The notes beneath the pieces were generated by a model. That model had not been told where the DNA came from. It saw nothing but the letters and a program-made list of their open reading frames with translations, and made no database searches. This document shows, piece by piece, positions 5,660-24,026 of a stretch of DNA of 43,474 bases (positions are counted from its first letter, which is position 1; each line of letters begins with the position of its first letter). This stretch comes from an uncultured Flavobacteriaceae bacterium (lineage in GTDB: Bacteria; Bacteroidota; Bacteroidia; Flavobacteriales; Flavobacteriaceae): contig CAZSSZ010000001.1 in the NCBI GenBank assembly GCA_964609755.1, positions 1-43,474 on the forward strand, read 5' to 3'. Made by a program: the position numbers and the translations under genes.

Positions 5660-5697
5660 TAAACTATAGTACACCTAAAAGAAAAACAATTTTTTCT

Positions 5698-5735
5698 AAA
5701 CACCACCAGAAATTCACTTCTGGTGGTGTTTTATA
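5698..5735 (+). terminator. Rho-independent terminator-like hairpin after the SusC/SusD/binding-protein block
   Basis: A perfect 14-bp stem pairs 5698-5711 (aaacaccaccagaa) with 5718-5731 (ttctggtggtgttt). The loop is 6 nt (attcac) and the 3' side is T-rich. It lies 39 nt after the stop codon at 5657-5659. Confidence 0.75.
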
Positions 5736-5737
5736 AA

Positions 5738-5745
5738 TAAGTTTG
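5738..5745 (+). promoter_or_regulatory. Bacteroidota-type -7 promoter box (TAnnTTTG) upstream of the 1054-aa gene
   Basis: TAAGTTTG lies at 5738-5745. It is immediately downstream of the terminator hairpin and 14 nt upstream of the ATG at 5760. Confidence 0.4.
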
Positions 5746-5759
5746 TAAGAACCTAATAA

Positions 5760-8924: not shown

Positions 8925-8938
8925 TAAATTAGGAAAAA

Positions 8939-10354
8939 ATGAAAAAATTTAAGTTTACATCAACGTTCACTCTAGCCGTTTTGGGCTTGGCTGCCGCAGT
9001 TGCGGTTAGCTGTGAACGCGGGTTTTCGGATGAAATTGCCTTGGCAACCTATCCTACAACCCCTGAAGTTTTTACAGATATTCCGGTAGGTCTTACAGAC
9101 GAATTTTTTGTGTCGTTTGACCCTGCCGATGGTGCCAATGTATATGGCTTTGGTACTGACGATAACGAAGCATACAAAGGAACTTCATCTATTCGCATTG
9201 AAGTCCCCGCACCCAACGACCCCAATGGGGGCTTTATTGGGGGGATTTTTCTCGATCGTGGAAATGGTAGAAATCTAACCGAATATGATGCTTTGACCTT
9301 TTGGGCAAAAGCCTCTAAGACAGGTACTGCTGGCTTGTTTGGTTTTGGCACCGATTTCCAAGGAGACAAATACGCTGCGGGAATTAGCGACATTACCCTT
9401 TCTACTGATTGGAAACAATATGTTATTCCCATTCCTGACCCTTCAAAACTGACCCAAGTAAAGGGAATGTTTGCCTTTTCGGCAGGAACGCAAGGAACAA
9501 ACGGTTTAGGCTTTACCATTTGGTTGGATGAAATTAAGTTTGAAAAATTGGGCACCATTGCGCAAGGAAGACCCGCCATTTTTGGTGGAGAGGACCTTAC
9601 GAAAACTGGTTTTATTGACGGTACTTTTGACGTAACAGGCACCCAAACACTAAACCATGCCGGCACGGATATCACTGTGAATGCTGCTTCGGGCTATTTT
9701 GATTTTGCATCATCAGAACTTACGGTAGCCCAAGTCAACGATCAGGGTAAAGTTACTGTTGTCAATAAAGGTGATGCCAAAATCACGGCTTCAATAGCTG
9801 GCGTTACCGCAAAAGGCTCATTGACGATTAATTCTTTGGGGAGGTTTAGTTTGCCCCCTGCTCCAACACATGAGGCAGCAAATGTAAAGTCGATTTTTAG
9901 TGATGCATATGAAAACGTTCCGATTGAATTCTATAACGGCTATTGGCAACCGTATCAAACTACTACTTCTGCGGATTTTGATGTCAATGGGGATAATATT
10001 CTCTCCTATGAAAACTTCAATTTTGTAGGGCATCAGTTTGGACAGCCAACAGTCGACGCCAGTGCCATGACGCACTTGCACCTTGATGTGTATGTACCAG
10101 GCACCTTAGATCCTGGAGCACAACTTAAAGTTACTATCAAAGACTTTGGCGCAGATGGTGTAGACAGTGCAGCAGATGACACTACGCAATCCTATACCAT
10201 TAATGCTTCGGATTTGGCAGCTGATGCTTGGAGCAGTATTGATATTCCATTGTCTTTATCTCCGCGTTCTAAGGTTGGACAACTTATCTATGAAAACAAT
10301 CAGACCAATCTGAAAAGTTTGCACATGGATAATGTCTTTTTCTACAAACAATAA
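8939..10354 (+). CDS. Multi-module surface glycan-binding lipoprotein (CBM-like, Big_2-like Ig domain, CBM-like)
   Basis: It has a lipoprotein signal (..AAAVAVSC-E). The N-terminal module is beta-sandwich-like (YDALTFWAKAS..WKQYVIPIP..IWLDEIKFEK). The central segment looks like bacterial Ig group 2 (VAQVNDQGKVTVVNKGDAKITASIAGVTAKGSLTI). The C-terminal module is also CBM-like (THLHLDVYVPG..VTIKDFG..WSSIDIPLS..MDNVFFYK). Confidence 0.65.
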   Translation: MKKFKFTSTFTLAVLGLAAAVAVSCERGFSDEIALATYPTTPEVFTDIPVGLTDEFFVSFDPADGANVYGFGTDDNEAYKGTSSIRIEVPAPNDPNGGFIGGIFLDRGNGRNLTEYDALTFWAKASKTGTAGLFGFGTDFQGDKYAAGISDITLSTDWKQYVIPIPDPSKLTQVKGMFAFSAGTQGTNGLGFTIWLDEIKFEKLGTIAQGRPAIFGGEDLTKTGFIDGTFDVTGTQTLNHAGTDITVNAASGYFDFASSELTVAQVNDQGKVTVVNKGDAKITASIAGVTAKGSLTINSLGRFSLPPAPTHEAANVKSIFSDAYENVPIEFYNGYWQPYQTTTSADFDVNGDNILSYENFNFVGHQFGQPTVDASAMTHLHLDVYVPGTLDPGAQLKVTIKDFGADGVDSAADDTTQSYTINASDLAADAWSSIDIPLSLSPRSKVGQLIYENNQTNLKSLHMDNVFFYKQ

Positions 10355-10369
10355 GCTAAAACCAACAAA

Positions 10370-11209
10370 ATGAATTTTAGAAAACATACATCTAAAGCCT
10401 TGCAAATGCTATCCCTTTTAGGGGTGGCTTTTGCTGTGGGTACATTTACAATAAGCTGCAACCCCGACGACACCCAAGTGGTGGCAAAATTCGACATCAT
10501 TACGATGCAAGACGAATTTGATATCGAAGGAGCACCCAACGATAAAATTTGGGGCTACGACATTGGTACGGGTACCAACGGTTGGGGTAACAACGAGCTG
10601 CAACATTACACGGACCGCTCCTCTAACGTTGAGGTAAAAGACGGGATGTTAAAAATCACTGCAGTTAAGGAAGCCTATGAAGGTGCTGCCTACACTTCAG
10701 CACGATTGCTGACCAAAGGAAAATTTGACCAAAAATACGGGCGTTTTGAGGCGCGTATCAAATTGCCTTGGGGACAAGGCATGTGGCCCGCATTTTGGCT
10801 TCTTGGCGCTGATTTTGACACGGCAGGCTGGCCCCATTGTGGCGAAATTGATATCATGGAAAACCGTGGGGCAGAACCTACTACAGTTAGCGGTACGGTG
10901 CATGGTCCTGGGTATTCAGCAGGAAATTCAGTTGGTAAGGAATTTTCACTTACCAGCGATCGTTTTGACACTGGGTTTCACATTTTTGGTATTGAGTGGG
11001 GCGAAGATTATATCAACTACTACGTAGATGATGTGTTGTACAATCAAATTACCCCTGCGGATGTTAATGGCGAATGGGTTTTTGACCAACCGTTTTTTAT
11101 TATCATCAACTTAGCTGTTGGAGGTAACTTTGGTGGTCCTCCAAACGACGCTACGGTTTTCCCTCAAGAAATGCTTGTTGATTACGTAAGAGTTTACGCT
11201 GCTGAATAA
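10370..11209 (+). CDS. GH16 endo-beta-1,3-glucanase (laminarinase) lipoprotein
   Basis: It has a lipoprotein signal (..GTFTISC-N). The GH16 catalytic motif is present (GEIDIME, ExDxxE type), together with NNELQHYT, WPAFWLLG and the LVDYVRVY tail. Confidence 0.9.
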   Translation: MNFRKHTSKALQMLSLLGVAFAVGTFTISCNPDDTQVVAKFDIITMQDEFDIEGAPNDKIWGYDIGTGTNGWGNNELQHYTDRSSNVEVKDGMLKITAVKEAYEGAAYTSARLLTKGKFDQKYGRFEARIKLPWGQGMWPAFWLLGADFDTAGWPHCGEIDIMENRGAEPTTVSGTVHGPGYSAGNSVGKEFSLTSDRFDTGFHIFGIEWGEDYINYYVDDVLYNQITPADVNGEWVFDQPFFIIINLAVGGNFGGPPNDATVFPQEMLVDYVRVYAAE

Positions 11210-11211
11210 CA

Positions 11212-12339
11212 ATGAAAATCACGTTTACACCTTTATTGTTTATTCTTTTGCTCATCGGTTGTGAGAAAGAAACCGTTTCCACAACCGATGACAAAAAACC
11301 TAGTGCACCTACCGAACTTTCGCTTGATATTACGCTTCAAGGTCAAGCAGCTAACCCTCATGGGGATGGCTCTGGCGTAGCCAATTTTAAAGCAACGGCT
11401 ACTGGCGCTTCTAGGTTTGATTTTAGAATTGATGAAGGCGTAGCCATGGAAAGTGGCAACGGCGAACTCGTACACGAATTTACCAAAGAAGGCACGCATA
11501 CCTATACCGTTACGGCTATTGCGTACTCAGACGAGAATCTTGCAGATTCTATTGCTAAAAACGTTCGTGTTCGTGTGGCACCACCTTCCAAATATGGGAT
11601 GACCCTTGTGTGGGCAGATGAGTTTGATTATGAAGGGGCTGTTGACGTTAACAAATGGCACCATCAAGTGATACCAATTGCAGGTAACAATTGGGCAAAT
11701 AATGAAGAGCAGCATTATACCGACAGAACTGATAATTCGTATGTGAGCGATGGCACTTTGAAAATTGTTGCCAAAAAAGAAAACTATCAGTTTAGAGGTA
11801 TTACCAAAAATTACACCTCGGCACGACTGAATTCCAAATACATATTCAAATATGGTCGTGTAGATATCAGTGCAAAACTTCCCGCTGCGGGAGGCACTTG
11901 GCCTGCTTTATGGACCTTGGGTGCGAACATAGATGAAATAGGAAACTATCATGGCAATACCTACGGAAGCGTTGGTTGGCCTAGCTGTGGTGAGATCGAT
12001 ATCATGGAACAGAACGGCTGGGACAAAAACCATCTGATTGGGCATTTGCATTGGGGCGACACCCAAACAGGAGCCTATGAAAACAAAGGTGGAACAAAGG
12101 TTGTGTCGAACACCACAACGACTTTTAACCTGTATTCGCTGATATGGAACGAAAACGAAATCAAAATTTTGTTTAACGACGAAGTGGTGTATGAAACCGA
12201 AAACACGAGTGCAATGCCCTATGATAATCCACATTATTTGTTGTTTAATATCGCTATGGGCGGTACCCTTGGCGGGGCTATCCCTAACGATTTTACGCAA
12301 GCCGTAATGGAGGTGGATTATATCCAAATTTATCAATAA
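11212..12339 (+). CDS. PKD-like domain plus GH16 endo-beta-1,3-glucanase lipoprotein
   Basis: It has a lipoprotein signal (..LLLIGC-E) and an N-terminal PKD-like segment (..EGTHTYTVTAIAY). The GH16 domain shows NNEEQHYT, WPALWTLG, GEIDIMEQ and MEVDYIQIY. It starts 2 nt after the previous GH16 gene. Confidence 0.88.
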   Translation: MKITFTPLLFILLLIGCEKETVSTTDDKKPSAPTELSLDITLQGQAANPHGDGSGVANFKATATGASRFDFRIDEGVAMESGNGELVHEFTKEGTHTYTVTAIAYSDENLADSIAKNVRVRVAPPSKYGMTLVWADEFDYEGAVDVNKWHHQVIPIAGNNWANNEEQHYTDRTDNSYVSDGTLKIVAKKENYQFRGITKNYTSARLNSKYIFKYGRVDISAKLPAAGGTWPALWTLGANIDEIGNYHGNTYGSVGWPSCGEIDIMEQNGWDKNHLIGHLHWGDTQTGAYENKGGTKVVSNTTTTFNLYSLIWNENEIKILFNDEVVYETENTSAMPYDNPHYLLFNIAMGGTLGGAIPNDFTQAVMEVDYIQIYQ

Positions 12340-12367: not shown

Positions 12368-15300
12368 ATGTTATTAGATGAAAAAAATATCAGCTGCCTA
12401 AGGCAGGAAAAAGAAATACTAAACGAAACAATTGAAATGACACAAGACGACGCGATTTATATTGGCGCGAATCCCACGCAATTTTCAACTAAAGAAGTAA
12501 AAGGCGAGGAAATAACCCGAAACGGACAAACCTTTTACAAAATTTCAAATGCAGACTGCATGCGTCCGTTTTTTATGAGTATTGTTAGCAATTCCGACCA
12601 TTGGATGTTTATATCAAGTAATGGAAGTTTGTCTGCGGGAAGAAAAAATAGCGACTACGCTCTTTTCCCATACTACACGGATGATAAAATCACGGAGGCT
12701 GCCGAAACTACAGGAAGTAAAAGTATTTTTATTGTAACCAAATCGGGTAAAAAGCACTTGTGGGAGCCCTTTTCCGTAAGGCAAAATGGCATGTACCATA
12801 CCACCCGAAATTTGTACAAAAATACCTACGGAAACAAAATTGTTTTTGAAGAAATCAACCACGACTTAGCCCTTACGTTTACCTACGAATGGAACTCTAG
12901 CGAAAAATTTGGGTTTGTTCGCAAGGCGTGTATTTCCAACAACGGAGCCGAGCGCATTTCAGTTAATGTCTTGGATGGCATCCAAAATATCTTGCCCTAC
13001 GGCGTTGAGCCGGCATTGCAAAGTGCAAGCAGTAACCTTGTAGACGCCTATAAAAAGTGCGAATTGGAAGAAGATTCAGGCGTTGGAATTTATTCGTTGA
13101 GTGCCATTATTGTAGACAAAGCCGAGCCGAGCGAGGCACTTAAAGCCAATGTGGTGTGGTCCCTCGGGCTTGACAATGCTAAAAAACTTATTTCTTCTTT
13201 GCAATTGGATGATTTCCGCAGGGGTCATGGCGTAATGCAAGAGGTAGACATCCGTGCGGAAAAAGGCGCATACTTTTTAAACGATGAAATTACCTTACAG
13301 CCAGATGCTTCAGAAAGTTGGATGTTGGTTGCGAATGTAAATCAAACCATGTCGGACATTGTTCAAATCAAGGAAAAATTGCAAAACCATACGGCTTTGC
13401 AAGAGACTATTTTAGCAGATATTGAAGCAGGGTCTGATCATTTGGTGGCGTTGGTTGCCGCCGCCGACGGACTGCAAATGACCAACGACCGTCTTCGCAA
13501 CATTCGTCACTTTGCCAACACCATGTTCAACATTATGCGAGGTGGTATTTTTGATGACAACTACCACATTGAAAAAGCAGATTTTACGACTTATATCGCC
13601 AATGCAAATCGAAAAGTATATCGCTTAAAAGAAGCTATTTTAGCAGCACTTCCTGAGGTTTTTGACGTTAAACATCTTAAAGAAATTGCCGCAAAGGATG
13701 ACAACCCAAACTTTAAACGCTTGTGTTTTGAGTACTTGCCATTAAAGTTTAGCCGACGTCACGGTGACCCAAGCCGTCCGTGGAACAAATTCTCCATCAA
13801 CACCCGAAATGAAGAGGGGGGAAAAATCTTAGACTACGAGGGAAACTGGCGTGATATTTTCCAAAACTGGGAAGCCTTGGCACACTCCTATCCAGAGTTT
13901 ATTGAGGGGATGATTCACAAGTTTTTAAACGCTACTACTTTCGATGGCTACAACCCGTATCGGGTAACCAAAGGTGGTTTTGATTGGGAAACCATAGAGC
14001 CAGACAACCCGTGGTCGTATATTGGCTATTGGGGCGATCATCAAATCATCTACCTACTTAAATTCTTGGAGTTTATTGAGGATCATTATCCCAATACACT
14101 TGCTGATTATTTCAATCAAGATTTGTTTGTGTATGCCAACGTGCCTTACCGCATCAAGAGTTACGAGCAAATTTTAAAAGATCCAAAAAACACCATTGAT
14201 TTTGATTTTGAGCGCGAAGAAAACATTCACTTTAAGCGTGAGGAAATCGGAGTAGACGGAGCCTTGCTTCGCGACAATACTGTATTTATTTACAAGGTAA
14301 ATTTCATAGAGAAAATCTTGGCTACAGTACTGGCAAAAATGTCAAACTTTATCCCCGAGGGCGGTATTTGGATGAACACCCAACGCCCCGAATGGAACGA
14401 TGCCAACAACGCGCTTGTAGGCAACGGTGTTTCTATGGTAACCCTGTATTACTTACGTCGTTTTTTACGTTTCTTCGAAACGGTTGTTGATAAATCCGAT
14501 TGGAATAATATCCATATTTCTAAGGAGCTACGCGCGTTTTTTATGCGTGTTACTACGGCTTTGGAACAACACAAAGAACTTCTTGGATCAAGCATTTCGG
14601 ATGTCGATAAAAAGCGCATTATGGATGCTTTGGGCAAAGCAGGAAGCGATTACCGAAACACAATTTACGACAAGCGTTTTTCGGGTGACAAAGAGGAAAT
14701 TTCGAAAGATGATTTAGTGTCATTTTTGGAGGTGTCACGTGCCTTTTTGGAGCATTCTATTGAGGCAAACAAACGTGAAGATAAGCTGTATCACGCCTAC
14801 AATTTGATGACAATCAATAACGACAATTCTGTTCGCATTTCACATTTACCCGAAATGTTAGAAGGTCAAGTGGCAGTACTTAGTTCCGGCTATTTGTCTG
14901 CCAAAGAAAACCTAGAAGTGCTTGATGGACTAAAAGCAAGCGCACTGTTTAGACCTGACCAATACAGCTATGTATTATATCCGAACAAGGAACTTCCGCG
15001 TTTTGTCAACAAAAACACTATTCCGAAAGAAAAAGTGGAAACATCACCTCTGCTAAAAAAACTCATTGCCGATGGCAATACACAAGTGCTTTCTAAAGAT
15101 GCAAAAGGGGAATACCACTTTAACGGGAACTTCAATAATGTGGACAGCTTGCGCGAAGCCTTGCAAAATCTTCCGGAGCAGTACCGCGCTTTAGCAACAG
15201 ATGAAACCGCTTATTTGGAGCAGGTTTTTGAAGCTATTTTCGACCACAAATCCTTTACGGGTCGCTCGGGTACTTTCTTCGGATATGAAGGATTAGGCTC

Positions 15301-15898
15301 TATTTACTGGCACATGGTGTCTAAGCTGCTTTTGGCGGTTTACGAAATTACACGTGATGCCATTGCTGCAAAGGAAGATCCCGTGCTGATTGGAAACTTA
15401 TTTGACCATTATTTTGAAATTAATGCTGGAATTGGTGCACACAAATCACCTAAACTGTACGGGGCATTCCCAACAGATCCATATTCACATACCCCTGGCG
15501 GAAAAGGCGCACAGCAGCCTGGAATGACTGGACAGGTAAAAGAAGATATCTTAAGCCGATTCGGAGAATTGGGTATTCGCATTTCAAATGGCGTACTTGG
15601 GTTTGACCCTACCATTTTGCGCAGTGAAGAATTTTTGACCGAACCACAAACATTTAATTATGTCAGCGTTACCGGAGAAAAAACTGCTATTGCACTAGAA
15701 AAAGACACCTTGGCATTCACGTATTGTCAGGTGCCTATTATTTACAAAAAATCAAAAACGGAAGGTATTGAGGTCGTGCTTCAATCGGGAGAAGTACAAA
15801 CATTTCCCGAGAACACATTGGATGTATCCCTTAGTACTGCCCTCTTTCAAAGGAGTAACGCCATTTACAAAATCACTGTTTCTGTTTTGAAAGAATAA
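12368..15898 (+). CDS. Signal-less GH94/GH149-like beta-1,3-glucan (laminari-oligosaccharide) phosphorylase
   Basis: The 1176-aa protein has no signal peptide. It carries a GH94-clan-like catalytic-Asp motif, RPEWNDANNAL (Asp678, nt 14399-14401), and phosphate-site-like segments (RRHGDPSRPWNKF; HTPGGKGAQQPGMTGQ). Size and a beta-1,3-glucan PUL context fit the described GH149 family. An alternative start at Met24 (MTQDD..) is possible. Confidence 0.6.
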   Translation: MLLDEKNISCLRQEKEILNETIEMTQDDAIYIGANPTQFSTKEVKGEEITRNGQTFYKISNADCMRPFFMSIVSNSDHWMFISSNGSLSAGRKNSDYALFPYYTDDKITEAAETTGSKSIFIVTKSGKKHLWEPFSVRQNGMYHTTRNLYKNTYGNKIVFEEINHDLALTFTYEWNSSEKFGFVRKACISNNGAERISVNVLDGIQNILPYGVEPALQSASSNLVDAYKKCELEEDSGVGIYSLSAIIVDKAEPSEALKANVVWSLGLDNAKKLISSLQLDDFRRGHGVMQEVDIRAEKGAYFLNDEITLQPDASESWMLVANVNQTMSDIVQIKEKLQNHTALQETILADIEAGSDHLVALVAAADGLQMTNDRLRNIRHFANTMFNIMRGGIFDDNYHIEKADFTTYIANANRKVYRLKEAILAALPEVFDVKHLKEIAAKDDNPNFKRLCFEYLPLKFSRRHGDPSRPWNKFSINTRNEEGGKILDYEGNWRDIFQNWEALAHSYPEFIEGMIHKFLNATTFDGYNPYRVTKGGFDWETIEPDNPWSYIGYWGDHQIIYLLKFLEFIEDHYPNTLADYFNQDLFVYANVPYRIKSYEQILKDPKNTIDFDFEREENIHFKREEIGVDGALLRDNTVFIYKVNFIEKILATVLAKMSNFIPEGGIWMNTQRPEWNDANNALVGNGVSMVTLYYLRRFLRFFETVVDKSDWNNIHISKELRAFFMRVTTALEQHKELLGSSISDVDKKRIMDALGKAGSDYRNTIYDKRFSGDKEEISKDDLVSFLEVSRAFLEHSIEANKREDKLYHAYNLMTINNDNSVRISHLPEMLEGQVAVLSSGYLSAKENLEVLDGLKASALFRPDQYSYVLYPNKELPRFVNKNTIPKEKVETSPLLKKLIADGNTQVLSKDAKGEYHFNGNFNNVDSLREALQNLPEQYRALATDETAYLEQVFEAIFDHKSFTGRSGTFFGYEGLGSIYWHMVSKLLLAVYEITRDAIAAKEDPVLIGNLFDHYFEINAGIGAHKSPKLYGAFPTDPYSHTPGGKGAQQPGMTGQVKEDILSRFGELGIRISNGVLGFDPTILRSEEFLTEPQTFNYVSVTGEKTAIALEKDTLAFTYCQVPIIYKKSKTEGIEVVLQSGEVQTFPENTLDVSLSTALFQRSNAIYKITVSVLKE

Positions 15899-15944: not shown

Positions 15945-17219
15945 ATGAGCACTATGAAAATTTTCGGAAAGTTTGGATTTTTCACAGTAGCGCTTTGGGT
16001 TTTGGTATCCTGTAACACACAGCATTTGAGTATGAAAAGTAAAACAGCAGCAGAAATTCTAGGAAATCCGGACTACACGGCAATTTCCTATGGCGGATAT
16101 CGCACTACATTACGTGAGAATCAACCCACTATTGCGGAATTAAAAGATGACATGAAAATTCTTCACGCTATGGGGATTCGTATTATCAGAACCTATAATG
16201 TGCATCTGCCACAGGCAGAAAACATACTCAAGGCTATTTCGGAACTCAAAAAAGAGGATTCGGATTTTGAGATGTATGTGATGCTGGGCGCGTGGATAGA
16301 TTGTCTTAACGCATGGACTGAAAAAGTGGTAAATCACAACGTGGAAAGCCCTCGTAACGAAGAAGAAATCGCGAAGGCCGTTGCACTTGCCAATCAGTAC
16401 CCTGACATTGTGAAAGTACTTGCGGTGGGTAACGAAGCCATGGTAAAATGGGCGACAAGCTATTATGTGCAGCCTAGTGTTATTTTAAAATGGGTGAATC
16501 ACTTGCAAGACCTTAAAAAGAAGAACAAACTCCCAAAAGACGTGTGGATTACCAGCTCTGATAATTTCGCTTCGTGGGGCGGTGGAGACACCGCTTATCA
16601 CAATACCGATTTGGAGGCCTTAATTGCAGCAGTCGACTACATTTCTGTGCACACTTATCCCTTTCATGATACGCACTACAATCCCGGTTTTTGGGAAATT
16701 ACAGCTGAAAATGCAGTCAACAAAACCCAGCGAGAACTTATCGAGGAAGCCATGTTGCGGGCTCGGGACTATGCGATTTCGCAATTCAATAGCGTTAAAA
16801 AGTACATGCAAGATTTGGGGGTAGACAAACCCATTCACATTGGCGAAACAGGCTGGGCTACGGTTTCAAACGGCTACTACGGAAGAAAAGGATCCCATGC
16901 GGCAGACCAATACAAACAAGCGTTGTATTATAAGCGTATTGGCGAGTGGGCAAAGGAAAATAAGGTTGCCTGTTTTTATTTTGAAGCCTTTGATGAGCCT
17001 TGGAAAGAAGCGCATAACCCCAAAGGTTCTGAAAATCATTTTGGACTTTTCACCGTAGATGGCAAAGCAAAATATGCCCTTTGGGATTTGGTTAATAAGG
17101 GTGTTTTTAAGGGATTAACTCGAAACGGAAAACCCATTGGAAAAACCTTTAAGGGGAATAGCAAAAACCTCTATATCTCTGTGTTGCCCCCAAACATTTT
17201 AGAACCCAACATGAACTGA
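15945..17219 (+). CDS. GH17-like (clan GH-A) beta-1,3-glucanase lipoprotein
   Basis: It has a lipoprotein signal (..WVLVSC-N). TIM-barrel GH17-type motifs are present: IRIIRTYN, LAVGNEAMVKW (acid/base region), IHIGETGWAT (nucleophile region) and FYFEAFDEPWK. Confidence 0.7.
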   Translation: MSTMKIFGKFGFFTVALWVLVSCNTQHLSMKSKTAAEILGNPDYTAISYGGYRTTLRENQPTIAELKDDMKILHAMGIRIIRTYNVHLPQAENILKAISELKKEDSDFEMYVMLGAWIDCLNAWTEKVVNHNVESPRNEEEIAKAVALANQYPDIVKVLAVGNEAMVKWATSYYVQPSVILKWVNHLQDLKKKNKLPKDVWITSSDNFASWGGGDTAYHNTDLEALIAAVDYISVHTYPFHDTHYNPGFWEITAENAVNKTQRELIEEAMLRARDYAISQFNSVKKYMQDLGVDKPIHIGETGWATVSNGYYGRKGSHAADQYKQALYYKRIGEWAKENKVACFYFEAFDEPWKEAHNPKGSENHFGLFTVDGKAKYALWDLVNKGVFKGLTRNGKPIGKTFKGNSKNLYISVLPPNILEPNMN

Positions 17220-17221: not shown

Positions 17222-18706
17222 ATGAAAAATGCAGCAATATTAATCGGACTAATTCTTGTAATGATGAGCACTTCTTGTATGCAAAACCCTTTAGAAGTCG
17301 CCGTATATGAAACTTCAGAAAGCGGAAACAAACTTACACTACGCACCGATTTTCAAGCTACAGAAAACACTTCGCTTATCACACTTGACGTCTCAAAAGA
17401 ATATCAGACCATTACGGGGTTTGGAGGTGCTTTTACAGAGTCTTCGGCTTTCCTGCTCAATCAGCTAAGTAAAGAAAACAGAGACCGCATTTTAAAGGCG
17501 TATTTTTCAAAAGAAGGCGCACGCTATTCGCTCACGCGAACCCATATGAACTCGTGTGATTTTTCGCTCAACAACTATTCTTACACGCCTGTTCCTGGAG
17601 ATAAAAATTTAGAGCATTTTTCGATTGAGGAGGACAAAGAAGATTTAATTCCCATGATAAAAGATGCCATGGCAATCTCTGAGGATGGCTTCAAGTTGTT
17701 TGCTTCGCCTTGGACAGCAGCTCCGTGGATGAAAGACAACAACAAATGGGTAGGCGGAAAACTGCTCCCCGAATATTACGATACTTGGGCATTGTTTTTT
17801 TCAAAGTATGTTGATGCCTACAAAGCCGAGGGAATTGACATTTGGGGATTTACCGTAGAAAATGAGCCCCACGGAAACGGTGAAAATTGGGAGAGTATGC
17901 ATTACTCACCCGAAGAAATGACGCATTTTGTTCAGCATTTTCTAGGACCAAAATTGGAAGCTGATGGCAAAGGAGACCTTGTTATTTTGGGCTACGATCA
18001 AAACCGCGAAGGCATTCGCGAGTGGGTAGATGTGATGTATAAAGATGAAGCTTCATCTAAATATTACGACGGTACCGCCGTGCATTGGTATGAAAGTACC
18101 TACGATTATTTTCCCACAGAATTGCAATATGCCCACGAAAAGGCTCCAGATAAATACTTAATTCAAACCGAAGCCTGCGTAGATGCTGAAGTTCCTGTGT
18201 GGCAAGACGATAAATGGTACTGGAAAAAAGAAGCCACGGATTGGGGCTACGATTGGCGCGAGCCAGCAAAGAAGTATTTGCACCCAAAGTATGCGCCTGC
18301 TAATCGCTACGCAAGAGATATTATTGGATGTCTCAACAACTGGGTTGATGGCTGGGTAGACTGGAATATGGTATTAGATACTAAAGGCGGTCCCAATTGG
18401 GCAAACAATTGGTGCATTGCCCCTGTAATTGTTGACCCCGAAAAAGACGAAGTGTATTTCACGCCCTTGTACTACATCATGGCACACTTTAGCAAATTCA
18501 TTCGTCCAGGGGCTGTAATTATTGACGCGCAAAATACAGACGATGACCTTATGGTTGCTGCTGTCAAAAACCCCGATGAGACTATTGCAGTAGTAGTATT
18601 TAACGAAGGAAAAACCATAAAACACTTTGCATTAAACCTTAAAGACACATCGAAAAAAATTACCATTAGCCCACAGGCAATACAAACCATTATGATAAAC
18701 AACTAA
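17222..18706 (+). CDS. GH30 glycosidase lipoprotein (glucosylceramidase-like, probable beta-1,6-glucosidase)
   Basis: It has a lipoprotein signal (..MMSTSC-M). GH30 hallmarks are present: ITGFGGAFTES, SPWTAPPWMK-like (SPWTAAPWMKDN), FTVENEPHG (acid/base) and IQTEACV (nucleophile). It starts 2 nt after the previous gene. Confidence 0.85.
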   Translation: MKNAAILIGLILVMMSTSCMQNPLEVAVYETSESGNKLTLRTDFQATENTSLITLDVSKEYQTITGFGGAFTESSAFLLNQLSKENRDRILKAYFSKEGARYSLTRTHMNSCDFSLNNYSYTPVPGDKNLEHFSIEEDKEDLIPMIKDAMAISEDGFKLFASPWTAAPWMKDNNKWVGGKLLPEYYDTWALFFSKYVDAYKAEGIDIWGFTVENEPHGNGENWESMHYSPEEMTHFVQHFLGPKLEADGKGDLVILGYDQNREGIREWVDVMYKDEASSKYYDGTAVHWYESTYDYFPTELQYAHEKAPDKYLIQTEACVDAEVPVWQDDKWYWKKEATDWGYDWREPAKKYLHPKYAPANRYARDIIGCLNNWVDGWVDWNMVLDTKGGPNWANNWCIAPVIVDPEKDEVYFTPLYYIMAHFSKFIRPGAVIIDAQNTDDDLMVAAVKNPDETIAVVVFNEGKTIKHFALNLKDTSKKITISPQAIQTIMINN

Positions 18707-18716: not shown

Positions 18717-21065
18717 ATGAAAGCTCAACCCTTATCATCTCATAAAGTACCTATTACTCAAAAAATAGCCTTTGGCGTGGGAATGTTTGCAAATCAAATG
18801 TTCCCTGCAATTTTGGGAATCTTTATGGTTGTTTTGGTTCAAGACTTAGGTTTTCCCGGATGGATGTGGTCACTTATCTATTTTTTCCCAAGAATATTTG
18901 ACTCCATCACCGATCCTATTATGGGATTTATCTCAGATAACACAAAATCAAAATGGGGACGTCGTAGGCAATATGTTTTGATTGGAAGCATTATAATGGG
19001 AGTTGCTTACATATTTATGTGGCAGCTCTTTAAGGAAAACTCGTTGCAATTCAATTTCTGGTATTTCTTTTTATGGTCCCTTGTTTTTTATTTAGGGCTA
19101 ACCTTTTTTAGTGTGCCTTATGTAGCCATGGGGTATGAGATGAGTGAAGATTTTCATGAGCGTACCAATATTATGGCAATTGCGCAGTGGATTGGACAAT
19201 GGGCTTGGGTAATTGCGCCATGGTTTTGGGTGATTATGTATGACCCCGAATGGTTCCCATCTGCTGAAGTTGCGGTACGAGAATTGGCTATTTGGGTTGC
19301 CATTCCATGTGCGATTTGCGCTATGGTTCCGGCCATATTTATTGAGAGTAAATCTACTCTTAATGAAAATTATGAGCCTTTGAATGGGGCTAATATTGGC
19401 AATAGCCTTAAAAAGATTTATCACAGTTTTGTTGAGGCGTTTAAAATCAAAGAATTTAGAAAATTATGTGGCGCTACGTTTTTAATTTTTAATGCGTTCA
19501 ACACTGTTGCTGCGCTCACGTTTTTTGTCATTGTTTACAAGCTCTTTAACGGAGACGCTGGAGCTAGTGGCATCTGGGTATCTCTTTTTGGTTGTTTAGG
19601 GGCCTTGGGAACCACATTTATTGTTATCCCAATTGTTACGTGGATGTCTAAGATTTTTGGAAAAAAGAAGGCATTTTTACTTGCTCAGGGAATCTCGGTA
19701 TTGGGCTACATAATGCTTTGGTTTTTGTTCGTTCCTGGAAAACCTTGGATGTACATTATTGCCCTCCCATTCTTTTCGTTTGGAATTGGAAGTTTATTTA
19801 CCATTATGATGTCTATGACTGCAGATGTCATTGATATTGATGAATTAAATTCAGGGAAACGAAGGGAAGGAATTTTTGGTGCTATATATTGGTGGATGGT
19901 CAAAGTAGGCTTTGCCATAGCTGGTGCCTTGAGTGGTGTTATCATTGCTCTTGTAGGCTTCAACCCCGACTTAACCACCGTGGAACAACAATCCGCTGTT
20001 GATGGGTTACACGCATTTTTCTGTTTCTTCCCCTTAGCAGGAACACTAATAGCCATGTGGATTATGCGTGACTATAGTATAGACGAAACTCGAGCAAATG
20101 AAATTAGAGCGCAATTAAAAGCGCAAAAAGGAACGCCAAAGCCCCTTTCGTATCAGCAAATGCAAGGGAAACTCGCTAACCTAACAGGCAAAACTTTTAC
20201 TTCTAGACTGCGTTCCGATGTTGATTTCTCAGGGCATACAATATCAAAACAAAAAGCGTTATTTGACAACGCCCTTAGCAAGGGGTTGCATGGCATTTGC
20301 TTTAGTCCATATCGCGAACACCAAAGTGTAGAAGACACCTTATCTGAAAGCCAAATTAAGGAACGTATGGAAGTGGTTGCTCCTTATGCGAACTGGGTGC
20401 GTTCGTTTTCTTGTACAGGCGGGAATGAGCATATTCCCGCGGTTGCCAAATCAAAGCATCTAAAAACTATGGTTGGCGCATGGATTGGGCAGGACAAAGA
20501 AGAAAATGATAAGGAAATAAAGGCGCTTATTGATCTAGCGAAAAAGGGATTGGTAGATATTGCAGTAGTAGGTAACGAGGTCTTGATGCGTGACGATTTG
20601 AGCGAACAGCATATTCTTGACTACTTGGCAGAAGTAAAACAAGCTATTCCCGGAATAAAAGTTGGCTATGTAGACGCATACTACCAGTTTATTCAGCGTC
20701 CAAAACTAGTTGAAGCTTGTGATGTAATTCTTATTAATTGCTATCCGTTTTGGGAAGGCAGTAATATTGAATTCGCCACATCGAATTTGAAAGAAATGTA
20801 CCAAGCAACTCAAAATATAGCCAACGGCAAGCCAGTTATTATTACAGAAACAGGTTGGCCAAATCAGGGAGATCGCGTTGGTGAAGCAAAGCCATCACCT
20901 CAAAATGCGATGGAATATTTTGTCAATGTCACTACTTGGGCAGCATTAGAAAAAGCACCAATATTCTACTTTTCTTCTTTTGATGAGTCTTGGAAATTAC
21001 ATCATGAAGGAGATGTTGGCGCACGATGGGGAATATGGGATAAATACGAAAAACGTAAATACTAA
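18717..21065 (+). CDS. Fusion protein: GPH/MFS-family glycoside:cation symporter (aa ~1-455) plus C-terminal GH17 domain (aa ~505-782)
   Basis: The reading frame is uninterrupted. The N-terminal part has about 12 hydrophobic segments and the GPH signature FDSITDPIMGFISDNTKSKWGRRRQ. The C-terminal part has GH17 motifs VVGNEVL and IITETGWP and is closely paralogous to the next gene. Confidence 0.85.
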   Translation: MKAQPLSSHKVPITQKIAFGVGMFANQMFPAILGIFMVVLVQDLGFPGWMWSLIYFFPRIFDSITDPIMGFISDNTKSKWGRRRQYVLIGSIIMGVAYIFMWQLFKENSLQFNFWYFFLWSLVFYLGLTFFSVPYVAMGYEMSEDFHERTNIMAIAQWIGQWAWVIAPWFWVIMYDPEWFPSAEVAVRELAIWVAIPCAICAMVPAIFIESKSTLNENYEPLNGANIGNSLKKIYHSFVEAFKIKEFRKLCGATFLIFNAFNTVAALTFFVIVYKLFNGDAGASGIWVSLFGCLGALGTTFIVIPIVTWMSKIFGKKKAFLLAQGISVLGYIMLWFLFVPGKPWMYIIALPFFSFGIGSLFTIMMSMTADVIDIDELNSGKRREGIFGAIYWWMVKVGFAIAGALSGVIIALVGFNPDLTTVEQQSAVDGLHAFFCFFPLAGTLIAMWIMRDYSIDETRANEIRAQLKAQKGTPKPLSYQQMQGKLANLTGKTFTSRLRSDVDFSGHTISKQKALFDNALSKGLHGICFSPYREHQSVEDTLSESQIKERMEVVAPYANWVRSFSCTGGNEHIPAVAKSKHLKTMVGAWIGQDKEENDKEIKALIDLAKKGLVDIAVVGNEVLMRDDLSEQHILDYLAEVKQAIPGIKVGYVDAYYQFIQRPKLVEACDVILINCYPFWEGSNIEFATSNLKEMYQATQNIANGKPVIITETGWPNQGDRVGEAKPSPQNAMEYFVNVTTWAALEKAPIFYFSSFDESWKLHHEGDVGARWGIWDKYEKRKY
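20229..21062 (+). other. GH17 catalytic domain portion of the transporter fusion (approximate boundaries)
   Basis: The region LHGICFSPY..WVRSFSC..GNEHIP..KTMVGAW..VVGNEVL..GYVDAYY..NCYPFWEG..IITETGWP..FYFSSFDESWK aligns collinearly with the 303-aa GH17 encoded at 21071-21982. Confidence 0.8.
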
Positions 21066-21070: not shown

Positions 21071-21982
21071 ATGTCATACAGAGAAGGTATAGAATTTAGC
21101 TTAGAAGAATTAGAATACAAATCGTATCAAGGCGTAAATTTTGATAATTATACAACCGAGGACTTAAAAGCGCTCTGGAGAAAAACACTCAAGTTGGGAA
21201 TGCATGGAATTTGTTTTAGCATGTATGAAGACGGGCAAGAGCCTGGAGATACAATAACGGTGGCTCAAGTGGAACGCCGTATCAAAATACTCAAACCCTT
21301 CACCAAATGGGTACGCTCTTTTTCATGTATTGAGGGCAATGAACACATTCCGCGCATTGCAAAAAAACATGGTATTAAAACGATGGTTGGTGCTTGGCTT
21401 GGCGATGACCCTGAAAAAAACGAAGAAGAAATAAAGGCATTAATTGCCCTTGCTAACGAAGGCTGTGTGGATATTGCTGCCGTGGGCAATGAGGTGCTTT
21501 ATCGCAACGATTTAACCCTAGAGGAATTGCTCGCATTTATGAAACAAGTTAGAGATGCAATTCCAGCCCATATTCCTATTGGATATGTAGATGCGTATTA
21601 CGAGTTTTCTTCACACCCCGAACTCGTAGAGCATTCAGACGTAATTTTATCCAATTGCTATCCGTTTTGGGAGGGTTGTCCGGAAGAATGGGCGCTAAAC
21701 CATATGCAAAGTATGTATGGGCAAGCCATGCACGCTGCAAAAGGTAAAAAAGTAATCATTACTGAAACGGGATGGCCCAGCAAAGGGGAGCCTCTCAAGG
21801 GTTCTGTGCCGTCCGAAGAACATGCTATGAAATACTTCATCAACACCCAAGCTTGGGCAAAACAGGCCAACATAGACGTGTTTTATTTTTCGTCTTTTGA
21901 TGAGTCTTGGAAAGTTGGTCCAGAAGGCGAAGTGGGTGCGTATTGGGGACTTTGGGATAAACATGAAAAACTCAAGTTTTAA
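21071..21982 (+). CDS. Signal-less (predicted cytoplasmic) GH17-family beta-1,3-glucanase/transglycosylase
   Basis: The 303-aa protein has no signal peptide. It carries the motifs AVGNEVL and IITETGWPSKG plus FYFSSFDESWK. It starts 5 nt after the fusion gene and is a paralogue of that gene's C-terminal domain. Confidence 0.85.
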   Translation: MSYREGIEFSLEELEYKSYQGVNFDNYTTEDLKALWRKTLKLGMHGICFSMYEDGQEPGDTITVAQVERRIKILKPFTKWVRSFSCIEGNEHIPRIAKKHGIKTMVGAWLGDDPEKNEEEIKALIALANEGCVDIAAVGNEVLYRNDLTLEELLAFMKQVRDAIPAHIPIGYVDAYYEFSSHPELVEHSDVILSNCYPFWEGCPEEWALNHMQSMYGQAMHAAKGKKVIITETGWPSKGEPLKGSVPSEEHAMKYFINTQAWAKQANIDVFYFSSFDESWKVGPEGEVGAYWGLWDKHEKLKF

Positions 21983-22010: not shown

Positions 22011-24026
22011 ATGAACGTTTACATCAATACTTTAGCCCTAGCCGTCGTTGTCCTAATTGTTGGCTGTGCCCCCAAACCCGATCGACAAAATAAGAAGGAG
22101 ATTGCCAAAAAAGTTGACGCTATTGTGCTTCAGATGACACTGGCCGAAAAAGTAGGTCAAATGACTCAAATTGATATGCGTTTGTTGGATGATTACAGCG
22201 ATATTAAGGAGTATCATATTGGCTCAATACTTAGTGGAGGTGGAGCAGTTCCCAAAACAAATACACCAAAAGCGTGGCTTGACATGGTTAATGGATTCCA
22301 AGAAATTGCCATGAGTGATCGACTTGGCATTCCATTAATTTACGGAATTGATGCTGTCCACGGACACAATAATGTTCTAGGGGCTACGGTGTTCCCTCAT
22401 AATTTAGCCCTTGGCGCTTCGAATGACGCTGACCTCGTTTATCGAGTAAACAAAGCCACGGCTGTTGAAGTTGCCGCTACAGGCATTCACTGGACTTTTT
22501 CACCTTGTATTACCATTCCACAAGATGCAAGATGGGGGCGTTTTTACGAGGGGTTTGGTCAAACTACCGATATTGTTGACGGGCTTACCGAAGCTGCTGT
22601 TTTGGGTTACCAAGACCGCCTTTTGGAAGTGCAAAACAAGCAAGTTGCTGCTTGTGCTAAGCATTTTATTGGAGATGGTGCTACAGTTTGGGGAACTGGC
22701 ACTCGAGTTGATGGGATGCACGACTATAAGTTGGATAGGGGTGATGTGCAATTAGAGGATAAAACCCTACGTGAAATTTACCTCCCCCCATACAAAACGG
22801 CTATTGCTGCCGATGTAAAAACCATTATGGCGAGTTTTAACAGCATTCGTGGAGAAAAGTGTCACGGCAGTAAGTATATCCTTACGGATTTGCTCAAAGA
22901 CGAACTTGGTTTTGAAGGCTTTGTGGTTTCAGATTGGGCAGGCATAGACGAAATTCCAGGGAATTATAAATCCGATGTTATCAATGGGGTAAATGCAGGT
23001 ATAGATATGTTTATGGTTCCTGGATTTATGGAGGGGCAAAACCAACAGCATTACAAAGTATTTATTCAATATTTGATAGCGGCGGTCAATGAGGGAAGCG
23101 TCTCTATGGAGCGCATCGACGATGCAGTACGTAGAATTTTGAAAGTAAAGATGGAATTGGGTCTTTTTGACAACCCTTATATCGATGACTCCTATCTTTC
23201 TGAAATAGGCTCACCAGCACACCGTGCACTTGCCCGTGAAGCTGTTCAAAAATCGACAGTTTTACTAAAAAATGATGGAGTACTGCCGCTTAACAACGCA
23301 GCGTCCATAACCGTGGTAGGTTCTGGCGCAAACAATTTGGGTGTGCAAAATGGGGGTTGGACTACTGAGTGGCAAGGATTTTTCACCCCTGATTTCGACT
23401 TTTTAGACTTTAATGCTGATGGCGTTTTAACCTTGAAGGAATATAATAATCAGCTTAAAAAAATCTACGAAGATAAGTTCGATGTCGCCGCTTGGGCTGG
23501 GCATTTTAATGAAATTGACGCAGATAAAAACAACAAAGCGAACCGTAAAGATTTTTCTAATTTTATGGCAAACCGCGTGCTTCAACCCAATGGCACAACC
23601 ATCGTAGAAGGACTGCGTCAAGTGGCACCTAATGCAAAAATTACATATGACCCTAACGCCAATGCTATTGCAAAAGAAGATATTGTGATTGCGGTTGTTG
23701 GGGAGTATCCCTATGCCGAAGGCTTTGGCGATGATGCGGATTTGCGTATGAATAAAGCGGATTTGGAAATATTGGCTCGGGCAAACACCTCTGGAAACCC
23801 CTTAATTGTTGTCTTGCTTTCTGGACGACCGCTAATGGTTCATGAACAGCTATCACAATGGGATGCTTTTGTTGCTTCATTTTTGCCAGGCATGGCAGGC
23901 GAAGGCATTGCAGATGTGCTTTTTGGAAGGGTAAATCCGCAAGCCAAACTCAGCTTTACATGGCCAACAAATCCTAATGGTGAGGGCGAATTGTTTGCGC
24001 AGGGTACTGGCATTCAGTTCGAATAA
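22011..24026 (+). CDS. GH3 beta-glucosidase/exo-beta-1,3-glucanase lipoprotein with an inserted EF-hand pair
   Basis: It has a lipoprotein signal (..VLIVGC-A). GH3 motifs are present: LAEKVGQMTQ, GIDAVHGHNN, KHFIGDG, GFVVSDW (nucleophile Asp region) and GGWTTEWQG. A ~64-aa extra segment lies between WQG and GTTIVEG. Confidence 0.9.
   Translation: MNVYINTLALAVVVLIVGCAPKPDRQNKKEIAKKVDAIVLQMTLAEKVGQMTQIDMRLLDDYSDIKEYHIGSILSGGGAVPKTNTPKAWLDMVNGFQEIAMSDRLGIPLIYGIDAVHGHNNVLGATVFPHNLALGASNDADLVYRVNKATAVEVAATGIHWTFSPCITIPQDARWGRFYEGFGQTTDIVDGLTEAAVLGYQDRLLEVQNKQVAACAKHFIGDGATVWGTGTRVDGMHDYKLDRGDVQLEDKTLREIYLPPYKTAIAADVKTIMASFNSIRGEKCHGSKYILTDLLKDELGFEGFVVSDWAGIDEIPGNYKSDVINGVNAGIDMFMVPGFMEGQNQQHYKVFIQYLIAAVNEGSVSMERIDDAVRRILKVKMELGLFDNPYIDDSYLSEIGSPAHRALAREAVQKSTVLLKNDGVLPLNNAASITVVGSGANNLGVQNGGWTTEWQGFFTPDFDFLDFNADGVLTLKEYNNQLKKIYEDKFDVAAWAGHFNEIDADKNNKANRKDFSNFMANRVLQPNGTTIVEGLRQVAPNAKITYDPNANAIAKEDIVIAVVGEYPYAEGFGDDADLRMNKADLEILARANTSGNPLIVVLLSGRPLMVHEQLSQWDAFVASFLPGMAGEGIADVLFGRVNPQAKLSFTWPTNPNGEGELFAQGTGIQFE
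23379..23591 (+). other. EF-hand-pair-like insertion within the GH3 gene
   Basis: Loop 1 is DFNADGVLTLKE (nt 23406-23441) and fits the canonical DxNxDGxLxxxE pattern. Loop 2 is DADKNNKANRKD (nt 23517-23552) and fits the DxDxNxxxxxxD variant. Both loops are flanked by helix-like segments (PDFDFL / YNNQLKKIY; AGHFNEI / FSNFMANR). Confidence 0.6.

Follow-up and report, generated by a model that had tools for sequence, protein, structure and literature searches.

Why would a sugar transporter carry a glycoside hydrolase at its carboxyl terminus, and be followed immediately by a second enzyme of the same family? The question is raised by a gene found in a window of 43,474 nucleotides, the whole stretch of DNA analysed here, from an uncultured Flavobacteriaceae bacterium (assembly GCA_964609755.1, contig CAZSSZ010000001.1). 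Laminarin accounts for one of the ocean's largest carbon fluxes and loci of this type are the main laminarin route of bloom-associated Bacteroidota. The reading preferred here, to which we give a probability of about 80%, is that the locus represents the inner-membrane and cytoplasmic section of a laminarin PUL of the 'variant 1' type, orthologous to FORMB_24710-24750, in which the tethered domain would be an exo-hydrolase and its free neighbour a transglycosylase. The architecture, the catalytic residues, the topology prediction, the synteny, the clades and the division of GH17 domains into Tyr and non-Tyr types are the computed basis of this reading.

The gene (18717..21065, + strand) starts with ATG and codes for 782 amino acids with 0 internal stops, the single uninterrupted 782-codon frame read previously. 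The ORF, the Pfam matches and the colinearity with a Formosa sp. MAG define its product as a GPH/MFS_2 symporter, a linker and a GH17 domain. Of the Pfam profiles, MFS_2 covers residues 19-457 (E 7e-62) and GH17 passes its gathering score at residues 707-782 (E 2e-7); the motifs FDSITDPIMGFISDNTKSKWGRRRQ, VVGNEVL and IITETGWP are all found in the translation. NCBIfam has no model for the GH17 part of the fusion nor for the free GH17.

The fusion gene is genuine and was not created by assembly. Three contigs encode the identical protein, and no homopolymer or repeat was found in the junction DNA (20040-20260). With the fusion of the Formosa sp. MAG there is 68% identity over 775 colinear aa, linker included, and the GH17 domain of the nearest reference MAG has 82% identity to the tethered one. 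Sought in other genomes, the same MFS_2+GH17 architecture of ~780 aa is found in all of the best 120 homologue clusters. The fused frame is present at 77/80 species-level loci of reference genomes, some of which are isolates or complete genomes (Kordia algicida OT-1, for example); these 80 loci, among which there is no Muricauda locus, are the best by similarity to the fused domain, so that 77/80 over-represents fused architectures. A few genomes (loci L075, L077 and L078 among the 80) have an unfused MFS gene followed by a GH17 gene. The earlier note had regarded such fusions as uncommon and mechanistically unstudied, a view contradicted by a description and assay published in 2018 (PMC6246565), by the reported presence of MFS::GH17 fusions in most variant-1 laminarin PULs (PMC10108472) and by a pattern scan of reference genomes, which gave at least 594 stretches encoding a GH17B-type relative.

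The genes surrounding the fusion are all on the + strand. The upstream part of the PUL (2..12339) codes for a SusC-like TBDR truncated at the beginning of the window (from 2), SusD (2683-4194), a pair of secreted lipoproteins that match no Pfam family (4220-5659 and 8939-10354), a secreted GH2-like protein of 1054 aa (5760-8924) and two GH16 enzymes (10370-11209 and 11212-12339). They are followed by a GH149 beta-1,3-glucan phosphorylase (12368..15898; NF058639, 1803 bits; PDB 6HQ6, E 0), whose true start is probably M24 at nt 12437 and whose N-terminus, when inspected, revealed no signal peptide. The gene at 15945..17219 codes for an endo-beta-1,3-glucanase of GH17A type whose signal is that of a lipoprotein (…LVSC); the enzyme matches weakly the FbGH17A structure (6FCG) and shares just 24% identity with the GH17B-type copies. 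The gene preceding the fusion (17222..18706; Pfam GH30, E 2e-77) codes for a GH30 of the beta-1,6-glucosidase type, with an N-terminus (MKNAAILIGLILVMMSTSC) that is a lipoprotein-type signal if translation begins at 17222. The last gene of the locus (22011..24026; Pfam GH3 N and C domains) codes for a GH3 exo-glucosidase with a lipoprotein signal (…LIVGC). GH149 is part of the conserved module. It is present at 61/80 loci, the GH17A and GH30 genes at 69/80 and 55/80, respectively. The order GH149-GH17A-GH30-fusion-GH17 equals that of the FORMB_24710-24750 annotations and is the commonest in the 80 genomes.

The transporter half of the fusion (residues 1-471; 18717..20129, + strand) is delimited by the AF2 model, the MelB alignment and TIGR00792 as 12 transmembrane helices and a cytoplasmic carboxyl-terminal helix (457-471). 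It scores 209.7 bits with PF13347 (cut-off 27) and 182 bits with TIGR00792 (gph), below the curated cut-off of 231, and is therefore a divergent member of the GPH family. Residues 11-464 align to MelB 2-443, that is over the full length, and a Foldseek comparison with MelB gives a TMt of 0.81. The fold is shared with MelB and the GPH family (TC 2.A.2) at 17-19% identity. The loop motif DSITDPIMG...KWGRRR characteristic of GPH carriers lies between TM2 and TM3, and the conserved Asp pair of helix II, which belongs to the cation site, is aligned, D62/D66 corresponding to D55/D59 of MelB (DSITD vs DAIND). The transporter half is a putative cation-coupled sugar symporter, whose substrate is presumably beta-1,3-gluco-oligosaccharides.

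The 12 transmembrane helices of the AF2 model and the FDSITDPIMGFISDNTKSKWGRRRQ signature bear out the description of this half as about 12 hydrophobic segments with a GPH motif. Kyte-Doolittle peak picking recovered 10/12 helices, TM2 and TM5 being amphipathic, and gave way to the helices of the AF2 model together with the MelB alignment. A 13th helix was looked for by hydrophobicity and in the AF2 model, with no hydrophobic segment found past residue 470. K+R number 25 inside versus 3 outside, and the termini of MelB are cytoplasmic. Since the helix number, the MelB alignment, the charge count and the lack of a 13th helix all concur, the GH17 domain should face the cytoplasm, the predicted topology being that proposed in the earlier note. 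Import would then precede hydrolysis.

The two parts of the protein are connected by a hydrophilic linker of ~35 residues (residues ~472-508; 20130..20240, + strand), recognized by its low model confidence and poor conservation. It contains no transmembrane segment, its AF2 pLDDT is about 50 at residues 472-477, and the consensus of 47 sequences is mostly 'x' here. The model of the whole fusion has a pTM of 0.60 and no confident docking of the domains, so that true substrate channelling is unsupported; together with the variable linker this speaks for a flexible connection and not for a rigidly docked domain.

The tethered GH17 (residues 509-782; 20241..21062, + strand) shows, in the AF2 model, the alternating strands and helices of a complete (beta/alpha)8 barrel, most of it at a pLDDT higher than 85. 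Residues 546-773 match PDB 4WTP, the GH17 transferase of Rhizomucor miehei (E 6e-31; Foldseek TMt 0.84, rmsd 3.0), while PF00332 covers only the carboxyl-terminal part (31.1 bits, cut-off 28.2). The acid/base E621 (nt 20577-20579, NE motif) and the nucleophile E711 (nt 20847-20849, ETGWP motif; the residue mutated in 4WTR), both checked at the codon level, align with the catalytic residues of RmBgt17A and are kept in 77/77 fused domains. Preservation of both Glu rules out a degenerate domain, which was the alternative considered, and the domain is complete as originally described. The W/E pair is W679/E680, and M624 (nt 20586-20588) occupies the 'transferase Tyr' position.

The free GH17 (303 aa; 21071..21982, + strand) starts 5 nt past the fusion stop codon, in the position of FORMB_24750, and was recognized as a Tyr-retaining paralogue by its identity to the fused domain (53% over 282 aa, E 8e-114) and its match to 4WTP (E 6.5e-38). 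It scores 44.9 bits with PF00332, and all identical runs said to be shared with the tethered domain were found. No signal peptide is apparent, its N-terminus being hydrophilic with no hydrophobic stretch. The active site residues are E141, Y144 (nt 21500-21502), W200/E201 and E232, with E141 and E232 unchanged in all 77 free copies. A free copy is found directly downstream of the fusion in about 70/80 loci. When free copies are defined by N-terminal length and MRCA, the window's copy falls in a 10-member subclade; subtypes based on Tyr-Trp spacing were discarded, this grouping not being monophyletic.

Fused and free GH17 differ at the third position after the acid/base, where a Tyr is found in 0/77 fused domains versus 74/77 free copies; three further positions are clade-specific. 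All 154 sequences (77 fused and 77 free) retain the two catalytic Glu as well as the W/E pair. The fused domains are monophyletic, with the exact fused/free bipartition recovered in 23/30 bootstraps, and the window fusion lies within their clade together with the Formosa MAG copy. The grouping holds across Flavobacteriaceae, Cyclobacteriaceae, Saprospiraceae, Lewinellaceae and Chitinophagaceae. Identity between fused and free copies is 48-62% inside one locus and on average 55% between different families. Because the fused domains form one clade, the duplication is ancient, and fused and free GH17 form an old pair that is nearly always co-inherited. The gene following the fusion is thus an adjoining paralogue, as first described, but not a local duplication, the same old pair being present in Formosa as FORMB_24740/24750.

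The Tyr has been linked to transfer: it is called crucial in MlGH17B and RmBgt17A, and a Met is found in its place in FbGH17B (PMC11005184), the basis for the link being two enzymes and modelling. Its absence from all fused domains and presence in nearly all free copies, combined with glucose release by the orthologue FbGH17B, make it likely that the tethered domain is the hydrolase and the free enzyme the transferase. This is the reverse of the earlier note, in which the tethered domain remodelled oligosaccharides rather than hydrolysing them.

Other explanations for these genes can be weighed against the same data. The unfused gene pairs at L075, L077 and L078 are what could be expected if an assembly error or frameshift had joined separate MFS and GH17 genes in the window. 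Their GH17, however, belongs to the free (Tyr) clade and they are therefore not split versions of the fused domain; the identical protein on three contigs, the 120 clusters of ~780 aa, the fused frame at 77/80 loci and the linker colinear with Formosa reduce the artefact to a negligible probability. Hardly more credible is a recent tandem duplication of the fused domain as the source of a redundant downstream GH17. Adjacent genes, a 5-nt spacer and long identical motifs in common would suit such an origin, but 53% identity is not above the cross-family fused/free mean of 55%, the copies form two groups across five families and each clade has its specific residue differences.

The other two alternatives concern function. 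A periplasmic GH17 domain would convert oligosaccharides to glucose before import of the latter, as the 2018 wording implies, and an exo-glucosidase that makes glucose would indeed fit a monosaccharide importer. This arrangement is improbable in view of the 12 transmembrane helices, the end-to-end MelB alignment, the lack of a hydrophobic segment past residue 470 and the 25 versus 3 distribution of K+R. To our knowledge, GPH-family carriers, to which TIGR00792 relates the transporter half, take glycosides and not free glucose. Furthermore, the two other signal-less beta-1,3-glucan enzymes of the operon, GH149 and the free GH17, only make sense if oligosaccharides reach the cytoplasm. A somewhat better case, though still an unlikely one, can be made for a tethered GH17 that is mainly a transglycosylase remodelling imported oligosaccharides: its closest solved structure is the transferase RmBgt17A, its aglycone site has the conserved W/E pair and the authors of the MlGH17B study allow that FbGH17B may have a transferase activity missed so far (PMC11005184). 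Yet the orthologous FbGH17B domain yields glucose (PMC6246565), the transfer-associated Tyr is replaced in every fused domain (M624 here) and kept by the free partner, and two transferases side by side, diverged but long retained, would be hard to explain. The hydrolase on the transporter and the transglycosylase beside it are preferred for the pathway that follows.

Laminarin would be cut at the cell surface by GH16 and the products taken up by SusC/D. Lipoproteins would trim them in the periplasm, with GH30 removing the beta-1,6 branches, GH17A acting as an endo-enzyme and GH3 also taking part. The GPH-type symporter half would bring in short laminari-oligosaccharides, which the tethered GH17, held at the cytoplasmic face by its flexible ~35-residue tether, would convert to glucose at the transporter exit as an exo-beta-1,3-glucosidase. 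The free GH17, diverged long ago and endowed with the aglycone Tyr/Trp/Glu triad, would probably disproportionate or branch the oligosaccharides, and the signal-less GH149 phosphorylase would collect glucose-1-phosphate. The combination of signal-less GH149, free GH17 and tethered GH17 suggests that oligosaccharides are processed in the cytoplasm. Exo-hydrolysis by the fused domain, transglycosylase activity of the free type and induction by laminarin are drawn from the literature on orthologues; we infer the transported substrate, the order of import then hydrolysis and any kinetic benefit of tethering.

By analogy, the trio might operate as a MalP/MalQ/MalZ-like system, an idea that is only tentative. 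The free GH17 would disproportionate short imported chains, from which GH149 would then yield glucose-1-phosphate without ATP, and the tethered hydrolase would clear leftovers where they leave the transporter, giving a steep inward gradient, while one Tyr-to-Met/Leu/His/Gln change after the duplication would have turned a transferase into a hydrolase. If true, this would correct the periplasmic placement implied for FbGH17B.

The fusion itself adds nothing new, being published, partly characterised and typical of variant-1 laminarin PULs. The small additions are the predicted cytoplasmic siting of the tethered domain and the loss of the Tyr in every fused copy. The contrast between M624 and Y144 offers a simple handle on the determinant of hydrolase versus transferase activity in GH17, and the proper comparison partner of MlGH17B is the free copy (FORMB_24750 type) and not FbGH17B.

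The nearest known counterpart is FbGH17B (FORMB_24740, AOR29491.1), the MFS::GH17 protein that Unfried et al. (2018; PMC6246565) described from the 'variant 1' laminarin PUL of Formosa sp. Hel1_33_131. In isolated and refolded form, the GH17 domain of FbGH17B is an exo-beta-1,3-glucosidase that releases glucose from oligosaccharides; the protein was described with 12 transmembrane helices and the fusion was called common (PMC6246565). The text of that article nowhere states the membrane side of the GH17 domain. The proteins of the Formosa locus are laminarin-induced. FbGH17B has, like the window fusion, an N-terminal 12-TM MFS/GPH part and a C-terminal GH17 with Met at the Tyr position, and its gene likewise follows GH149-GH17A-GH30 and is itself followed by a free GH17 gene (FORMB_24750). 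Sequence comparison, with the Formosa sp. MAG copy as proxy for AOR29491.1, identifies the window fusion as its orthologue. Unlike the Formosa locus, that of the window has an extra GH3 gene downstream and belongs to an uncultured member of the Flavobacteriaceae. As fusion and free partner were published in 2018 for Formosa, the gene described here is just one more example of a known system; the two adjoining genes are standard in laminarin-eating Bacteroidota and not new.

The free GH17 resembles FORMB_24750 (AOR29492.1), also single-domain, signal-less and encoded directly 3' of the transporter gene, and MlGH17B (WIW39500.1), the beta-1,3-glucanosyltransglycosylase of Muricauda lutaonensis, a signal-less, single-domain enzyme whose gene is downstream of a transporter gene (PMC11005184). 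The triad Y136/W191/E192 of MlGH17B corresponds to Y144/W200/E201. The length of MlGH17B (295 aa) and its numbering fit exactly the 294-aa subtype of free GH17, a comparison made by published numbers. Some genomes carry both this and the 303-aa subtype of the window copy, which may therefore be a co-orthologue of MlGH17B. An MlGH17B-like transfer activity, in which beta-1,6 links are made and laminaribiose is set free, is probable but extrapolated, the window enzyme being of the 303-aa subtype, only 57-60% identical to the 294-aa types.

More distant relatives share single features with the system. RmBgt17A, the Rhizomucor miehei GH17 beta-1,3-glucanosyltransferase (4WTP/4WTR), is the best solved structure for both GH17B-type copies of the window, with catalytic Glu and W/E pairs that align with theirs; unlike them it is fungal, secreted and stand-alone (~28% identity), and its Tyr102 has no equivalent in the tethered domain. 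MelB, which shares the transporter fold, lacks a catalytic carboxyl-terminal domain. In the cyclic beta-1,3-glucan synthases of NdvB/Glt1 type (GT2 + GH17), the GH17 lies on the cytoplasmic side and is covalently part of a membrane protein, as in the fusion, but the partner is a biosynthetic glycosyltransferase instead of an importer from a catabolic locus; their GH17 has ~27-30% identity to the GH17B type (PMC11005184). E. coli MalP/MalQ/MalZ combine a cytoplasmic phosphorylase, a transglycosylase and an exo-glucosidase acting on imported oligosaccharides. The likeness to the window trio is a functional analogy only: the folds are unrelated, the linkages are alpha-1,4 versus beta-1,3 and none of the E. 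coli enzymes is fused to a transporter.

The fusion gene of the window is real and intact, and it is an orthologue of a widespread system that has been published before and characterised in part. It occupies 18717-21065 (+ strand) as one uninterrupted open frame of 782 amino acids with an ATG start. Its stop codon is separated by 5 nt from a 303-aa ORF (21071-21982, + strand) coding a free GH17. Pfam assigns residues 19-457 of the fusion to MFS_2 (E 7e-62) and its carboxyl terminus to GH17. Among solved structures, residues 11-464 align to the full length of the melibiose permease MelB (2-443) and the C-terminal half matches RmBgt17A, a GH17 beta-1,3-glucanosyltransferase (E 6e-31). The best Foldseek matches of the two halves are the same proteins (TMt 0.81 and 0.84, respectively), and this search returned no solved chain covering both halves. 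Tethered and free GH17 share 53% identity over 282 residues (E 8e-114). The single-frame fusion and adjoining paralogue proposed in the earlier note are confirmed by the ORF, Pfam, structure matches and pair identity, and all motifs quoted there are found in the window translations.

An assembly-induced fusion is contradicted by several observations. The identical protein is found on three contigs of a public collection, and its best 120 homologue clusters, which include isolates (Maribacter arenosus, Lacinutrix, Algibacter), are all of ~780 aa with both MFS_2 and GH17. No homopolymer or repeat was found in the junction DNA. In a reference scan of one genome per species, using patterns common to both GH17 copies, at least 594 pattern-matching stretches code for a relative. 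The fused frame occurs in 77 of the 80 best loci, some of which lie in complete genomes of isolates (Kordia algicida OT-1, for example), a proportion skewed toward fused architectures because these loci (numbered L001 onwards) were picked by similarity to the fused domain. Fusions are also reported in SAR92, Luminiphilus and SAR86 (PMC10108472).

Variants of the architecture are found. L075, L077 (Psychroserpens jangbogonensis), L078 and L072 lack the fused domain and carry a ~476-521-aa MFS gene followed by a separate Tyr-type GH17, either a pre-fusion state or a secondary loss; Muricauda loci are described in the literature likewise, as an MFS gene plus a separate GH17. Psychroflexus/Mesohalobacter fusions (L019, L027, L030, L031, L033, L040, L050) are 828-858 aa long and their match to the window's transporter half ends after ~190-340 residues, pointing to an insertion or marked divergence either inside the C-terminal six-helix bundle or past it. 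A 790-aa fusion in a MAG labelled Rhodoferax sp. (L067), on a contig binned as betaproteobacterium, was either mis-binned or acquired by horizontal transfer. Two MAGs (L018, 6317-7852; L022, 5504-6040 and 6500-7849) have a truncated or split transporter half, likely through frameshifts, pseudogenes or long-read errors.

The earlier note held transporter-glycosidase fusions to be uncommon and mechanistically unstudied. This fails, since FbGH17B (FORMB_24740) of Formosa sp. Hel1_33_131, an N-terminal 12-TM MFS transporter joined to GH17, was described in 2018 and its isolated GH17 domain assayed as an exo-beta-1,3-glucosidase releasing glucose from oligosaccharides (Unfried et al. 2018, PMC6246565). 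The supplementary tables of that work list FORMB_24740 as a cytoplasmic membrane protein with 12 TM and its neighbours as GH149 (FORMB_24710), GH17A with a signal peptide (24720) and GH30 (24730). They also list FORMB_24750, a laminarin-induced GH17 predicted to be cytoplasmic and without signal peptide; the free-standing paralogue is therefore already on record. The window fusion is 68% identical to that of a Formosa sp. MAG and colinear with it, linker included.

An AlphaFold2 model of the fusion built from 47 homologues (pLDDT 82, pTM 0.60) has 12 TM helices within residues 13-450, a short helix at 457-471, a variable low-confidence linker up to about residue 508 and a (beta/alpha)8 barrel at 509-782. 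No hydrophobic segment is present beyond residue 470 (top 19-residue Kyte-Doolittle mean 1.23). Taking the helices of the model, 25 Lys and Arg lie on the N-terminal side against 3 on the opposite one. Both termini of MelB-type carriers are located in the cytoplasm. The cytoplasmic orientation proposed for the tethered GH17 is thus well supported as a prediction by helix number, charge distribution and MelB-like fold. The free GH17 and GH149 have no signal peptide, so oligosaccharides must enter the cytoplasm; signals are present in GH17A, GH30 (when read from 17222), GH3, both GH16s and the GH2-like protein. The 2018 text does not give the membrane side of the FbGH17B domain, and its wording 'hydrolysis and product uptake' suggests hydrolysis before uptake (PMC6246565). 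Our analysis favours import before hydrolysis, contrary to that apparent order.

Sequence comparison indicates that the two GH17 copies diverged long ago. At about 70 of the 80 loci a free GH17 of 294-309 aa comes directly after the fusion, an order that spans Flavobacteriaceae, Cyclobacteriaceae, Saprospiraceae, Lewinellaceae, Chitinophagaceae and further families. A neighbour-joining tree built from 154 domains places the 77 fused ones in one clade, with the exact fused/free bipartition in 23 of 30 bootstraps, and identity between copies of the same locus (48-62%) does not exceed between-genome values. Both catalytic glutamates and the aglycone-site Trp/Glu pair are unchanged in all 154 sequences; neither copy is therefore degenerate. 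Two Kordia loci (L015, Kordia sp.; L047, K. algicida OT-1) and a Flaviramulus MAG (L012) have the fused domain plus free copies of 302 and 294 aa, so the free clade was duplicated too. Many non-flavobacterial and some flavobacterial loci carry right behind the free copy a third, far more divergent GH17 of ~310 aa, scoring just 50-70 bits against GH17B-type queries (L009, 5029-5970; L022, 8799-9731; L028, 8764-9720; L034, 8904-9836; L036, 8913-9845; also L053, L063, L071, L072, L073, L078). None is present in the window.

The tethered domain had been proposed to act as a transglycosylase; the opposite is indicated. MlGH17B of Muricauda lutaonensis, a signal-less 295-aa GH17 coded downstream of an MFS gene, is a beta-1,3-glucanosyltransglycosylase whose authors regard Tyr136 (Tyr102 in RmBgt17A), Trp191 and Glu192 as critical for transfer and point out that FbGH17B has Met in place of Tyr136 (PMC11005184). 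This position is the third residue past the acid/base Glu; the window's free copy has GNEVLYR there (Y144), its tethered domain GNEVLMR (M624). Tyr occurs in 74 of 77 free copies but in none of the 77 fused domains, which have Leu (49), Met (12), His (11) or Gln (5). The three free copies without Tyr have Leu instead and come from MAGs of Cyclobacteriaceae, Roseivirgaceae and Flammeovirgaceae (L020, L026, L046). Three further positions separate the clades (P58, G283 and Y291 of the free copy). The Tyr/non-Tyr pattern, together with glucose release by FbGH17B, argues that the tethered domain would be a hydrolase and the free enzyme its transferase-type partner.

The fusion gene is part of a laminarin polysaccharide utilisation locus (PUL). 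Its order is SusC (cut by the window start) and SusD, two secreted lipoproteins (4220-5659 and 8939-10354) flanking a secreted 1054-aa GH2-like protein (5760-8924), two GH16 genes, a GH149 beta-1,3-glucan phosphorylase (12368-15898; NF058639, 1803 bits; PDB 6HQ6), a GH17A-type lipoprotein, GH30 (17222-18706), the fusion, the free GH17 and GH3. Beyond GH3 come housekeeping genes (MetRS, Mfd, SerRS, KsgA, MgtE), which mark the stretch as chromosomal DNA of an uncultured flavobacterium. GH149 accompanies the fused/free pair at 61 of the 80 loci, GH149-GH17A-GH30-fusion-GH17 being the most frequent order. The two lipoproteins, with nil or marginal Pfam matches (a weak Big_2 match in the second), are probably surface glycan-binding or PKD-like proteins. 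For the 5760-8924 product, which sits where Muricauda PULs have their 'GH2', the only match is a weak one to a GH2 TIM barrel. The NCBIfam GH149 model starts matching at residue 41 and the true start is probably M24 (nt 12437); from either start the enzyme lacks a signal peptide and should therefore be cytoplasmic. GH30 read from ATG 17222 opens with MKNAAILIGLILVMMSTSC, a lipoprotein-type signal. In the identical contig (L001, 4548-5990) its gene call begins 14 codons further in (480 aa) and the signal is lost; a start site chosen in the same way may lie behind the published 'no signal peptide / cytoplasmic' calls for GH30 of Formosa and Muricauda.

The best-supported model is import followed by hydrolysis. 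Imported laminarin would be trimmed in the periplasm by GH30, GH17A and GH3, and short beta-1,3-oligosaccharides would be carried inward by the GPH-type symporter. The tethered exo-glucosidase would cleave them close to the cytoplasmic exit, and the free GH17 and GH149 would act on the same cytoplasmic pool. The linker is variable and modelled with low confidence, so that proximity of transporter and enzyme is plausible but true channelling unsupported. The analysis adds a firm topology prediction for the fusion and a clade-wide Tyr/non-Tyr split that lends itself to a simple mutational experiment. It also identifies the free GH17, and not FbGH17B, as the counterpart of MlGH17B in loci of the Formosa type. 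As a caveat to the transferase assignment, the published numbering of MlGH17B exactly matches the 294-aa free subtype, whereas the window's free copy belongs to the 303-aa subtype, which is only 57-60% identical to the 294-aa one; both subtypes occur together in some genomes (Kordia, Flaviramulus). More speculatively, the cytoplasmic enzymes could follow for beta-1,3-oligosaccharides a logic like that of MalP, MalQ and MalZ.
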